Shown: positions 20,344 through 27,800 of the stretch, piece after piece | How the letters are laid out: each line of letters opens with the position of its first letter | How positions within the stretch are numbered: position 1 is the stretch's first letter | Source: Candidatus Saccharimonadales bacterium | Lineage (GTDB): Bacteria; Patescibacteriota; Saccharimonadia; Saccharimonadales; UBA4665 | Assembly: GCA_035247965.1 (NCBI GenBank) | Contig: DATFHW010000025.1 | Span: forward strand, 510,551-574,550 | DNA: 64,000 nt | Reading direction: 5' to 3' | Translations under genes and position numbers: made by a program | The notes under the pieces: generated by a model | What the model was told of the DNA's origin: nothing | Databases searched by the model: none | The model's input: only the letters and a program-made list of their open reading frames with translations

Positions 20344-20394
20344 GTCTTATATTGTAACAGAGGTACGCGGATTGTAAAACCGGGTGTTGTTTTA

Positions 20395-20423
20395 TTGACA
20401 AAGTACGGTTTTTGTACTATGGT
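20395..20423 (+). promoter_or_regulatory. promoter TTGACA-N17-TATGGT for GC-rich block B
   Basis: TTGACA at 20395-20400 and TATGGT at 20418-20423. It is divergent from the putative alaS promoter. Confidence 0.5.
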
Positions 20424-20515
20424 TATCGCATCGTCTTCATACGTGAGGAGGTGAACATTAATTGCAGAGCTGAGGCGAATAATCGTCTCGGTAGATTTCA
20501 ACCGAAAGGTGCCCA

Positions 20516-23107: not shown

Positions 23108-23160
23108 TAGGCGCCGCGACCTAAGTCGCTCTGCAATTCTGAACAACCCGCACGAAGACG

Positions 23161-23212
23161 GCCTCCGGGCTGGCACCCGCCAGCAACCTGCCGTTCCCCG
23201 GCATCCGGAGGC
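23161..23212 (+). terminator. nested GC-rich hairpin GCCTCCGG...CCGGAGGC with no U-tract
   Basis: Outer 8-bp stem enclosing an inner GCTGGC-accc-GCCAGC stem. It follows the six-paralog array. Confidence 0.4.
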
Positions 23213-23314
23213 ACGTCGTGTAAACATATGGTTGAGCGCCCGCGCTCCCATCACTGTTTGCACGACTTTTTCATACTTATTTATTTTTTACGAACATCAT
23301 ACACATTACATACG

Positions 23315-23343
23315 TTGACATTGCATGCTCGCGGGCGTACACT
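23315..23343 (+). promoter_or_regulatory. promoter TTGACA-N17-TACACT
   Basis: Consensus -35 at 23315-23320 and TACACT at 23338-23343, within an AT-rich patch. Confidence 0.55.
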
Positions 23344-23382
23344 GTCCACGTCTGTAAAAAACGACGACCCCAAGGGGGAAAC

Positions 23383-23535
23383 ATGAGCAAGTCCAAGCAC
23401 GCTCGCGGTCGCTGGGACGGTTGCATTGTGCCGGCCGTTCTGCTGACTGTCGCCTTGGCGGCTGGGATCTACGTCTTCCACAGTGAGCTCGGGACGTTCT
23501 TTGTCAATCTGGTGCAGCAGCTCGTAGGACGCTAA
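23383..23535 (+). CDS. basic-N-terminus single-TM miniprotein (50 aa; not in ORF track)
   Basis: MSKSKHARGRWDGCIVPAVLLTVALAAGIYVFHSELGTFFVNLVQQLVGR. AAGGGGGAA lies upstream. Confidence 0.6.
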   Translation: MSKSKHARGRWDGCIVPAVLLTVALAAGIYVFHSELGTFFVNLVQQLVGR

Positions 23536-23765
23536 TGTCCAACGAACACAAGCACCGCAAGGGCAAACAGCCCGATACCTACGCCGCGGCTAGGAAACGT
23601 GTGCGCCGAGCGGACTGCCGCCGTCGCTGCCATGAACGGTGCGAGTGCGTACGCGACGCGACTGCCTCTGCCGCCCGCGGCTGCTTCAGTGGCTCTACCG
23701 TAATGATCGTGGCGGTTTTACTGGCTGCTGTGGTCGCTCTCGCAGCGATTACCGGCAAGCTCTAG
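23535..23765 (+). CDS. basic, Cys-rich N-terminus with a C-terminal TM anchor (76 aa)
   Basis: Track ORF. TAATG stop/start overlap with the upstream gene. MSNEHKHRKGKQ... ending in VMIVAVLLAAVVALAAITGKL. Confidence 0.65.
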   Translation: MSNEHKHRKGKQPDTYAAARKRVRRADCRRRCHERCECVRDATASAARGCFSGSTVMIVAVLLAAVVALAAITGKL

Positions 23766-23941
23766 CTCCACCGCTCTACCCGCCTTCTGTGGTGGCCACC
23801 GTGAGCAATTAAACTCGGTGGCCACCAATGGGCCGTTTTACAGACATGGTCGTGCAGGATTGCACGAAAACAGCTTGCATTACCGCTTCCGCGGCTCTTT
23901 TTGTTTTCCTTTCTGCACGACCTACACACATCATGAGTATT

Positions 23942-23970
23942 ATTGACAACGCTTATCCCCATGTGTACAC
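23942..23970 (+). promoter_or_regulatory. promoter TTGACA-N17-TACACT (second copy)
   Basis: TTGACA at 23942-23947 and TACACT at 23965-23970. Confidence 0.55.
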
Positions 23971-24018
23971 TGGTGTACGTCCATTTGTTTGTTCATTCAT
24001 GCACTACCGGAGGCCCTT

Positions 24019-24153
24019 ATGGGGACCCACGTCAAAACGCGCGCACCCAAGGCAGCCAAGTCGTCACCCACGGGTGGCTTCGGACGAAAGTTCCTGCTGT
24101 TGATCGTCGTCGCCGGGCTCATCGCCTGGGGCATCACGTCGATCGGTCACTGA
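24019..24153 (+). CDS. basic-N-terminus tail-anchored miniprotein (44 aa; not in ORF track)
   Basis: MGTHVKTRAPKAAKSSPTGGFGRKFLLLIVVAGLIAWGITSIGH. CCGGAGG lies upstream. Confidence 0.6.
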   Translation: MGTHVKTRAPKAAKSSPTGGFGRKFLLLIVVAGLIAWGITSIGH

Positions 24154-24401
24154 CCACACGCTCCTCCAGCACGCCTTCCCAGCCTGATTAGAAAAAGCAG
24201 TGAGCCTCCCGCTGGGCAGCCCGCACCACAAGTGCCCTGCCCCGGGAGGATCCTGTAACACCCCATACCCGCCCCTTTGCTATGAACCCGGACAACCCCC
24301 ACAAACCTTTGTTGAGGTCGCACTCGCGACATCCGAAGGCACAATCGTGCACGCAACCCTACCCTACCAACTTTTACGTGCACGATTTTTTCCTATTTAC
24401 A

Positions 24402-24430
24402 TTGACAATACCTAATATCGGTGATATAAC
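24402..24430 (+). promoter_or_regulatory. promoter TTGACA-N17-TATAAC
   Basis: TTGACA at 24402-24407 and TATAAC at 24425-24430. Confidence 0.5.
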
Positions 24431-24489
24431 GTACGCAGTTCGTCTGAACATAGTACGTTGAAAATTTAGTTGTATTGGAGGTGAGATCT

Positions 24490-24630
24490 TTGCAGCTCGC
24501 TTCAGAGGGCTTCGGCAGTGCCGGGCCTATTTTTTGTTACATCGGAATGGTCCTATTCGTCCTATGGTGGTGGCGTGGACGTGGTCCTCGACCTCCCAGG
24601 GGTGGCGGCCGTTCCGATATCGTCCACTAG
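24490..24630 (+). CDS. single-TM miniprotein with a WWW and Arg/Gly/Pro-rich tail (46 aa, TTG start; not in ORF track)
   Basis: MQLASEGFGSAGPIFCYIGMVLFVLWWWRGRGPRPPRGGGRSDIVH. GGAGGTGA lies 6 nt upstream of the TTG. Confidence 0.4.
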   Translation: MQLASEGFGSAGPIFCYIGMVLFVLWWWRGRGPRPPRGGGRSDIVH

Positions 24631-27454: not shown

Positions 27455-27504
27455 CCGTCGGCCGGTCCGATACAACTAAACAATAACTGAATGTTCGACG
27501 CGAA

Positions 27505-27572
27505 CGACGTGTCTCTGGCAGCCCCGCGGGCCCAGAAAGGACTCTCGGCACCCTGCCGGAGACACGCCGTCG
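27505..27572 (+). terminator. long GC-rich hairpin CGACGTGTCTC-TGGCAG...CTGCC-GGAGACACGCCGTCG at the end of block B
   Basis: Complementary arms of about 17 nt are visible by eye. No U-tract. Confidence 0.4.
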
Positions 27573-27772
27573 TGCGAATAGTAGATCGGTAGATCAGGTG
27601 GTCGTAGCATTGCGATGTTGGCGGCTCCTAGCGAGTTTTTTTGTAGCGGTCATTCCCGCTGCTCCCGCCTTCGATCCCATTGCTATTCGCACGACAAACC
27701 ACCATGTATGATTTTTATGCAACGATGCGACCCGTTTGGTCGTTCGCATCTTTACCCAAGAACCATAGAAAT

Positions 27773-27800
27773 AAAAAAGCCCGAGTTTGTTCGGGTTTTT
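27773..27800. terminator. rho-independent terminator downstream of mnmA
   Basis: AAAAAAGCCCGA-gtttgt-TCGGGTTTTT. Confidence 0.7.

Follow-up and report, generated by a model that had tools for sequence, protein, structure and literature searches.

We analysed a 64,000-nucleotide (nt) stretch of the genome of a Candidatus Saccharimonadales bacterium (the window; positions 510,551 to 574,550 of contig DATFHW010000025.1, here C25, in assembly GCA_035247965.1), in which three promoters, P1 to P3, serve four open reading frames (ORFs) for very small membrane proteins: P1 precedes p50 and p76, P2 precedes p44, and P3 precedes p46 and the rest of an array of small genes. As judged from the alignments, the regulatory scaffold of this locus, including a new stem-loop with a shared core, is more conserved than the genes it serves, and this is the notable result of the analysis. 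We consider it probable (roughly 0.6) that the inverted repeats (IRs) and G+C-rich hairpins of the scaffold are compound 3'-end structures, serving as terminator, insulator, or stabiliser and abutting the next promoter, within the conserved core of a three-promoter miniprotein island. An initial annotation of the window had described three mini-transcription units, each with a strong promoter and an upstream TGCACGA(C/T) motif, that encode basic miniproteins reminiscent of toxins; this observation is confirmed and strengthened, and its reading of the promoters and miniproteins is right, whereas the ideas of an operator and of toxins are not supported.

The comparison at the DNA level covered eight lineages, i.e., the window, L005, L006, L008 (identical to L007), L009, L010, L013, and L014, and sequence features, conservation, coding status, and base-pair covariation were read directly from it. 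Six genomes were aligned over P1 and P2 and five over P3; L013 and L014 were read separately for some features. Coordinates are those of the window, and the promoters P1 to P3, their leaders, the miniprotein ORFs, and the stem-loops described below all lie on the plus strand. P1 (23315 to 23343) and P2 (23943 to 23971) both read TTGACA-N17-TACACT and match 10 of the 12 consensus positions, and P3 (24402 to 24430), which is also present in L013 and L014, reads TTGACA-N17-TATAAC. With TTGACA, a TATAAT-like hexamer, and a 17-nt spacer (range for the class, 16 to 18 nt), all three have the form of sigma-70-type promoters. All three had been proposed in the initial annotation and are real; the second had been placed at 23942 to 23970, one position too far upstream. 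The string TTGACA-N17-TACACT occurs three times in the 1.137-Mb genome, and two of these occurrences are P1 and P2, 628 nt apart. Across the aligned genomes, 35 of the 36 hexamer positions are invariant, compared with 28 of the 51 spacer positions. Specifically, the -10 hexamer of P1 is invariant in all six genomes and its -35 hexamer in five (TTGACT in L008), with 6 of 17 spacer positions invariant; both hexamers are invariant in P2 (six of six genomes) and in P3 (five of five), with 11 of 17 invariant spacer positions in each. In L008 the whole P1 spacer has been replaced, and the arrangement is still TTGACT-N17-TACACT; in L013 the -10 hexamer of P2 is TATAAT. Hexamers that are held while their spacers drift are the classic footprint of functional promoters. 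The proposal of three separate mini-transcription units holds, with promoters footprinted phylogenetically in eight lineages and intact ORFs whose ratio of nonsynonymous to synonymous substitution rates (dN/dS) is below 1.

Conservation extends to about 30 nt upstream of each -35 hexamer, including an invariant 30-nt flank at P2, and to most of each leader. The three promoters had also been said to lie in AT-rich patches, which applies to the outer two (35 to 37% G+C), whereas the middle one, with 45% G+C in an island of 60%, shows only a slight AT bias. The P1 leader (23344 to 23382) falls within a near-invariant block and contains the invariant box GTCCACGTCTGTAAAA (23344 to 23359) and the Shine-Dalgarno (SD) sequence AAGGGGGA. 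The P3 leader (24431 to 24489) is 59 nt long and almost invariant, with near-invariant blocks at 24419 to 24451 and 24456 to 24483, and contains GTTCGTCTGAAC and the SD sequence GGAGGTGA. Two motifs, GTTC-N4-GAAC within the P3 leader and CGAACA ahead of P1, had raised the idea of SOS boxes, which was dropped: the palindrome upstream of lexA differs, and the motifs are scattered at background frequency. lexA itself is present, and the palindrome in its upstream region (C25:799630-799720), TATACA-N7-TGTATA, may be the SOS box of this lineage and is unrelated to the island motifs.

The four ORFs served by these promoters are p50 (23383 to 23535; 50 amino acids [aa]), with a basic N terminus, a W(D/S)GCG.P motif, a central transmembrane (TM) segment, and an 18- to 19-aa C-terminal tail; p76 (23535 to 23765; 76 aa), with a basic head (net charge, +6 to +11), a Cys/His cluster, and a C-terminal TM segment; p44 (24019 to 24153; 44 aa), with an MG.H start, a head rich in Ser, Thr, and Lys, a GGFG(R/W)KF motif, and a TM segment running to the C terminus; and p46 (24490 to 24630; 46 aa), the first gene of the downstream array, with a TTG start codon, an N-terminal TM segment, and an Arg/Gly/Pro-rich C-terminal tail. 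An SD site lies upstream of each, and the stop codon of p50 overlaps the start codon of p76 (TAATG), an arrangement by which p76 is predicted to be translationally coupled to p50. All four ORFs are intact wherever the contigs cover them, with in-frame insertions and deletions only: p50 in six genomes, p44 in five aligned genomes as well as in L013 and L014, and p46, together with its TTG start, likewise in five aligned genomes and in L013 and L014. For the closest pairs, dN/dS by the Nei-Gojobori method is 0.22 for p50, 0.24 for p76, 0.24 for p44, and 0.12 for p46, at dS values of 0.5 to 1.7 overall, which are near saturation; across the lineages, dN/dS of the ORFs is about 0.2 to 0.4. Intactness in every lineage and dN/dS values well below 1 indicate that the miniprotein ORFs are real genes, as judged by these measures under relaxed purifying selection.

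In all orthologs, p50, p76, and p44 combine a net-positive N-terminal side (+2 to +11) with a TM segment, and p46 combines its N-terminal TM segment with a positive C-terminal side. By the positive-inside rule we infer that the N termini of p50, p76, and p44 and the C terminus of p46 would face the cytoplasm. The basic segments stay on the same side of the membrane segment in every ortholog, which bears out the earlier description of basic-headed small membrane proteins. The more specific picture of a basic head followed by a C-terminal anchor fits p76 and p44; in p50 the TM segment is central and followed by the tail, so that this protein is not strictly tail-anchored. The hydrophobic N-terminal segment and Arg/Gly/Pro-rich tail ascribed to the miniprotein at 24490 (p46), and its place at the head of the array, are as described, and this layout is conserved.

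The noncoding sequence around these genes changes more slowly than the genes themselves. Columns invariant in all genomes make up 54% of the intergenic and 31% of the coding alignment (Fisher test, p = 3e-18). Mean pairwise nucleotide identity is 83% for the intergenic region in front of p50 (IG1), 62% for that between p76 and p44 (IG2), and 67% for that between p44 and p46 (IG3), compared with 48% for p50, 61% for p76, 55% for p44, and 63% for p46; as a neutral yardstick, the third codon positions of alaS are 65% identical between the window and L006. In a three-way alignment, all near-invariant blocks of at least 15 nt are noncoding. The most divergent lineage, L013, illustrates the pattern: its IG1 is 84% identical to that of the window, whereas the ORF behind it, a 56-aa frame at 1121 to 1291 with a charged head followed by a TM segment, is only 22% identical to p50 at the protein level. 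Here the regulatory frame has stayed fixed while the ORF in the p50 slot has turned over, to the point of being essentially unrecognisable. By these comparisons, selection acts mainly on the noncoding scaffold, i.e., on the promoter hexamers, their upstream flanks, the leaders, and the stems. The miniproteins would need to keep only a cytoplasmic basic segment and one TM helix, which would explain why they diverge quickly. The locus offers a clear case in which small membrane proteins turn over within a regulatory scaffold that hardly changes, and this combination suggests that the timing and amount of their expression are under strong selection. Saccharibacteria live as obligate epibionts, their genomes are tiny, few of their regulators are known, and hardly any promoter or terminator has been mapped in them; the three footprinted promoters with their leaders and 3' structures could be used directly as reference parts.

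The scaffold follows a constant order of stop codon, G+C-rich hairpin, shared-core stem-loop, AT-rich DNA, and next promoter. In IG1, the last ORF of the upstream unit is followed by HPa1 (23150 to 23222), a G+C-rich three-way stem-loop without a T-run (z score of the predicted fold, -5.2), of which 26 pairs are conserved in six genomes; the loops vary, and all changes in the stem are G.U-compatible. IR1 (23215 to 23266), GTCGTG(T/C)AAACA...TGTTTGCACGAC, forms nested helices with 20 pairs conserved in eight genomes. At its base, three lineages show a compensatory swap from A-U to U-A, and one U.G wobble is found in the window; a T-rich run follows the repeat in five of the eight genomes, and the joint fold of HPa1 and IR1 reaches a z score of -6.8. 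In IG2, the hairpin HP2 (23790 to 23827; GGTGGCCACCG...CGGTGGCCACC, a G+C-rich stem of 11 to 12 bp) follows p76 without an adjacent T-run; 11 of its pairs are conserved, its loops vary, and L009 and L010 carry a compensatory change from C-G to U-A, the same variant being found in L014. IR2 (23848 to 23922; GGTCGTGCAGGA...TTCTGCACGACC) has a 12-bp stem around a variable 51-nt loop, with 11 pairs conserved in six genomes, and folds jointly with HP2 at a z score of -6.1. In IG3, p44 is followed by HP3 (24197 to 24256; z score, -3.2), again G+C-rich and without an adjacent T-run, with 18 predicted pairs; its inner stem has undergone a single compensatory change, from GCAC/GUGC to GCGC/GCGC. A small hairpin is predicted between HP3 and IR3 (24306 to 24339; CCTTTGT.GAGG.CGC...GCG..ATCC.AAGG), both arms of which are conserved. 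IR3 (24343 to 24387; AATCGTGCACG...CGTGCACGATT; z score, -4.6) has an 11-bp stem and a variable, pyrimidine-rich loop and is followed by TTTTTT in the window and by a U-run in all genomes read. It is conserved in seven genomes; in L013 both arms have changed together (ATCGTGCAGC/GCTGCACGAT), and L006 has a G.U pair. The G+C-rich hairpins without U-tracts that had been reported at the ends of the first two units correspond to HP2 and HP3.

A fourth repeat with the same core, IR4 (27569 to 27695; GTCGTGCGAATAGTAG...TTGCTATTCGCACGAC, 16-bp stem), marks the far end of the island, without any plus-strand promoter downstream. It is conserved in L009 and is part of a noncoding island tail of about 300 nt (27455 to 27775) that is about 90% identical to L009:9870-10170 and folds, at a z score of -5.3, into a large structure that combines IR4 with a G+C-rich hairpin and is closed by the long-range stem GCGAACGACG...GGTCGTTCGC; the tail could be a structured 3' untranslated region (UTR) or a separate RNA. 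All four repeats share a 7-nt core, and the extensions of their stems differ from repeat to repeat and are complementary within each. Across the lineages the arms are nearly invariant, and the loops of IR2 and IR3 vary in both sequence and length. The G.U cases are compatible with pairing on the plus strand only, and the tandem stem-loops fold far better than shuffled sequences (z scores, -4.6 to -6.8).

The TGCACGA(C/T) motif of the initial annotation is indeed found upstream of each promoter, ending about 48, 20, and 14 nt before the -35 hexamers of P1, P2, and P3 in the window. Its three copies, given as TGCACGAC for the first two and TGCACGAT for the third, are the 3' arms of IR1, IR2, and IR3. 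A genome-wide search, as had been suggested, shows that the clustering is unique to this locus: TGCACGAY occurs five times within 1.12 kb here and 110 times in the genome (0.097 per kb), and no other cluster of at least three copies exists. TGCACGA is not generally enriched in the G+C-rich islands of the genome (0.26 per kb, against 0.20 per kb genome-wide). Exact pairs of GTCGTGC and GCACGAC within 160 nt occur twice in the genome, namely as IR2 and IR4. A looser search for inverted repeats returned 14 hits against 13 in a reversed-sequence control, so that only the clustered copies of the shared-core repeat are taken as meaningful. A similar repeat, GATCGTGCGC...GCGCACGATT, which may be due to chance, lies about 23 kb upstream of the window (C25:487302-487380), some 60 nt upstream of a promoter, TTGACA-N18-TATGCT, which precedes a gene for a Pro/Ser/Thr-rich single-TM protein and is divergent from a CorA-like gene; the nearby box CATACACATTGCAT resembles CATACACATTACAT upstream of P1.

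From these features we infer where transcription would start and stop, and that the stem-loops would act at the RNA level. Three housekeeping-type (sigma-70-like) promoters would start three short messages, and each unit, like the island itself, would be closed by a G+C-rich hairpin followed by a GUCGUGC/GCACGAC stem-loop. In IG1 and IG3, the descending arm of the repeat together with the U-run would most likely be an intrinsic terminator or insulator of the preceding unit, and this terminator would sit directly against the UP region and -35 hexamer of the next promoter. Intrinsic terminators and tandem 3' stem-loops, such as those resembling repetitive extragenic palindromes (REP) and bacterial interspersed mosaic elements (BIME), stabilise or insulate bacterial mRNAs. 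The structures described here resemble both in their conserved G+C-rich stems just past the stop codons, in the U-runs after IR1 and IR3, and in the drift of their loops. They differ from both in the G+C-rich hairpins that lack U-runs, in the large loops of IR2 to IR4, and in the single 7-nt core common to the second stems of all units; with only four copies, all in one island, the core repeat is not a dispersed repeat in the manner of REP or BIME.

Several observations weigh against 3'-end structures of this kind. IR2 and IR4 have no adjacent U-run, and neither have HPa1, HP2, and HP3. The stems of the hairpins and of IR1 to IR4 are stable and G+C-rich, as expected of intrinsic terminators; the loops exceed the usual 3 to 8 nt, at 23 to 37 nt in IR3 and 23 to 95 nt over IR2 to IR4, and the short terminal loop of IR1 is reached only through nested helices. 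A terminator scan flagged none of these sites, a silence that is explained by its loop limit of 3 to 8 nt. Covariation is thin, with one or two events per stem; the near-invariance of the stems, in which most pairs never change, keeps the counts low, and the case for selection on structure consequently depends for the most part on loops that vary beside stems that do not. The 7-nt core common to four stems hints at sequence-specific recognition, which a plain terminator would not need. Lastly, the structural model of p76 is of low confidence (predicted local distance difference test [pLDDT], 64), and the topology, metal binding, and function ascribed to the miniproteins are derived from sequence only.

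The shared core is also the basis of a reading that we regard as unlikely, in which the TCGTGCA/TGCACGA half-sites are DNA operators through which a regulator, possibly by looping, would control the three promoters jointly as a small regulon. The core does lie at all three promoters, and a genome-wide search found TGCACGA followed by a strong promoter nowhere else. It is invariant in all lineages while adjacent stem positions covary, which suggests that sequence matters and not pairing alone, and the repeat at C25:487302-487380 may be a fifth copy upstream of another TTGACA promoter. However, IR4 has the same core and no promoter downstream. The arms are separated by anything from 23 to 95 nt, the distance from the 3' arm to the -35 hexamer ranges from about 7 to 48 nt (about 7 to 8 nt at P3 in L013), and compensatory and G.U changes are better explained by pairing on the plus strand than by two independent protein half-sites; loose repeats, moreover, occur only at background frequency. 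The copy without a promoter, the variable spacings, and the changes that preserve pairing all weaken the operator reading, and the earlier notion of TGCACGA as a free-standing operator box gives way to that of one arm of an inverted repeat of 10 to 16 bp. A core common to four stems and frozen in all lineages suggests nonetheless that sequence may be read as well as structure.

Such recognition is the premise of a more speculative proposal, to which we give somewhat less credence still: the shared-core stems, hairpins, and leaders would form a dedicated punctuation system at the level of RNA or single-stranded DNA, in which a factor reading the folded core decides between stop, read-through, and processing. 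In IG1 and at the island end, the preceding hairpin and the repeat share sequence, the 3' arm of the former overlapping the 5' arm of the latter, so that the two could compete for pairing; if the proposal were true, these competing pairings would give a switch something to act on, and the system would express the island as alternative sets of miniproteins. In a bolder version, p76, as a membrane-tethered basic Cys/His protein, may itself be the punctuation factor. Should the stem-loops be read by a specific factor, they would constitute a new regulatory element for the phylum.

It appears rather improbable that the conserved intergenic blocks are independent noncoding RNAs or cis-acting leader RNAs of which promoter and terminator are only a part, for example a small RNA from the 3' UTR comprising HPa1 and IR1, or a closure of the p50-p76 message by pairing of its 5' and 3' ends. 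Conservation does go far beyond the needs of the hexamers, the tandem stem-loops are strongly folded, and the island tail is a conserved structured element of 300 nt. A conserved box in the 3' UTR of the p50-p76 unit (23836 to 23849; TTTTACAGACATGG, core TTTACAGA invariant in six genomes) is complementary to the P1 leader box GTCCACGTCTGTAAAA at 13 of 14 positions, with a potential for 10 to 13 bp of pairing, and in a duplex test over seven genomes this leader paired better with its own 3' UTR than with others (mean z score, about -1.8 against about 0). This support is weak, though, and is confined to the first unit, since nothing comparable was found for the second and third; L008 breaks the pairing without compensation. 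For the P3 leader no stable fold is predicted (z score, +0.4), and Rfam holds no family that matches the stem-loops or the island tail, whether at gathering thresholds or at permissive ones (E up to 1).

That the units are type I toxin-antitoxin modules, with the miniproteins, especially p46 with its N-terminal TM segment, basic tail, TTG start, and invariant leader, as membrane toxins that antisense or leader-binding small RNAs would restrain, is in our view very unlikely. In type I toxin mRNAs the leader is typically better conserved than the ORF, and the p46 leader is likewise more conserved than p46. The miniproteins are small and hydrophobic, each behind its own strong promoter. Hok, TisB, Fst, TxpA, and other toxins of this type (survey, Fozo et al. 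2010, PMC2887945) are also very small hydrophobic peptides with a single TM segment, and p46 shares their usual layout of an N-terminal TM segment with a charged tail. With 44 to 50 aa and one TM segment, p50, p44, and p46 fall within the size range of such toxins (below 60 aa, hydrophobic); p76 has 76 aa. In contrast, the other three of the four miniproteins have the opposite topology, a long basic cytoplasmic head followed by a TM segment toward the C terminus. No antisense or adjacent small RNA with a promoter of its own was found in a sequence scan, and the conserved blocks are explained by plus-strand features. A weak minus-strand match (9 of 12 positions) overlaps P2 and would read antisense toward the 3' end of p76; this match mirrors P2, whose region is palindromic, and the minus strand shows no convincing conserved promoter; the G.U-type changes favour a plus-strand RNA. 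Furthermore, the locus is single-copy, syntenic, and vertically inherited, and the ORFs, under purifying selection as they are, have no sequence relation to known toxin families. The analogy with type I toxins or phage effectors drawn in the initial annotation is not borne out either by paralogs in the genome or by a match to holins, PHROGs, or PADLOC families. Least credible of all are mobile cassettes with the repeats as attC-like sites or terminal inverted repeats, or phage-derived effectors such as holins: imperfect palindromes with a shared core do punctuate a same-strand array of short ORFs, and the G+C content of the island (60%) exceeds that of the genome (about 51%), but the order and content of the units are identical in eight of eight lineages, which argues, in an analysis that included no integrase search, against variable cassettes, the units carry their own promoters, unlike integron cassettes, no copies of the elements exist elsewhere in the genome, and no phage genes lie nearby and no phage or holin family matches (best PHROG E value, 0.005, over the TM stretch only).

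The proteins themselves would be small, cytoplasm-facing, membrane-anchored modulators. Profile searches of the four miniproteins against Pfam, NCBIfam, PADLOC, PHROGs, and the PDB gave no credible match, and the exact sequence of p50 is a singleton in the protein collection. For p76, an exhaustive search of 1.8 billion representatives gave two homologs, and with word-index and profile searches added the family comprises 12 members of 76 to 83 aa, none of them annotated. Conserved in the family are a KRVR motif, the Cys/His cluster C-(H/Q)-x-R-C-E-(C/H), a G-C pair preceding the TM segment, and a terminal (T/A)GK(L/F), with TGKL in 9 of the 12 members. Metal binding by p76 through its Cys/His cluster is probable. 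A match of p76 to PAN_2 (E = 9e-5) was rejected as an artefact of the Cys pattern, and this domain is not among the Pfam domains precomputed for other family members. The AlphaFold2 model of p76 features a helix followed by the TM helix, and its confidence is too low for a fold search.

As a strongly basic cytoplasmic Cys/His domain tethered by a single TM segment, p76 resembles zinc-binding anti-sigma factors and other membrane-tethered regulators. Unlike in the anti-sigma factors, the cluster does not fit HxxxCxxC, Pfam zf-HC2 is not matched, the cytoplasmic part comprises only about 55 aa, and no sigma-factor gene is adjacent. A second comparison is with the tandem arrays of VirB2-like pilins in Saccharibacteria and other Patescibacteria, which consist of 2 to 11 small, divergent, same-strand membrane proteins with about 25% average identity within an array (bioRxiv 10.1101/2025.01.22.634366). 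The island likewise encodes divergent small membrane proteins on one strand in a saccharibacterium; the four miniproteins, however, have a single TM segment and are not two-TM hairpins, and promoter and terminator scaffolds are not described for the VirB2-like arrays in that study (bioRxiv 10.1101/2025.01.22.634366). The two-TM neighbours within the island may be related to VirB2-like pilins. Neither the four miniproteins nor six neighbours matched TrbC/VirB2 (PF04956) or T4SS_pilin (PF18895) at E values up to 1, and no virB4 turned up beside the island, in an analysis that included no search aimed at virB4.

The mini-units form the middle of a 7-kb island at about 20.4 to 27.8 kb of the window, with 60% G+C in a genome of about 1.14 Mb with 51% G+C. 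The island is flanked by alaS on one side and mnmA on the other, both on the minus strand, and contains some 30 plus-strand ORFs of 19 to 166 aa with SD sites, high third-position G+C, and one to four hydrophobic segments. Its neighbourhood consists of alaS, mnmA, and other small membrane ORFs; no phage genes were found among the neighbourhood proteins. At its head, a promoter TTGACA-N17-TATGGT (20395 to 20423, in the region 20344 to 20475), its leader, and the SD sequence GAGGAGGTGA are nearly invariant in L006 and L009, and the ORFs behind it cannot be aligned; their first start codon is TTG in the window, ATG in L006, and uncertain in L009.

The gene order is common to eight of eight lineages, running from upstream two-TM ORFs through IG1, a p50-like ORF, p76, IG2, p44, IG3, and p46 with its TTG start to a variable array, and alaS adjoins the island in L006 and L009 as well. 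The closest named relatives of the alanyl-tRNA synthetase (AlaRS) of the window belong to metagenome-assembled genomes of Candidatus Saccharibacteria or Saccharimonadales. AlaRS is 87% identical between the window and L006, and on this evidence the locus is old, vertically inherited, and syntenic at least since the split of lineages with 87%-identical AlaRS. A six-frame search of the genome revealed no paralogs of p50, p76, p44, p46, or p107, the last being a small protein encoded further downstream. When the 1.6-kb region was searched at the DNA level against the genomes of 60 related species, 7 of them of the same genus, only two short chance-level matches were obtained, so that the core of the region is absent from the same-genus species representatives. 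An exact-pattern scan with one invariant noncoding block found two further metagenome contigs, which are identical to each other in the region. Across the genomes searched, the scaffold and the miniprotein island are restricted to a narrow clade of Saccharibacteria.

Automatic gene calls in the G+C-rich islands of L005, L009, and L014 proved unreliable. In none of the relatives had p46, which starts with TTG, been called, and false ORFs had been placed on the minus strand across real plus-strand genes; a 343-aa minus-strand call in L009 (8771 to 9802), for example, covers the homolog of the last island ORF of the window. Standard gene calling misses such tiny genes or places them on the wrong strand.

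A second island of small membrane ORFs lies outside the window, on contig C33 (C33:37000-46000; locus L004, 3200 to 12600). Between its ORFs, it contains about nine copies of a modular intergenic cassette, composed in order of a hairpin (GGCGGCTG...CAGCCGCC), a box (CCTCCTTCTCAAAG), a canonical terminator, a -10 box, and a conserved leader ending in CTTTGAGAAGGAGG. In reverse complement, the upstream box of the cassette is identical to the downstream SD region, and transcripts reading through could therefore mask the SD sequence. The same promoted and terminated layout in this second island suggests that individually promoted mini-units are a general design in this genome.

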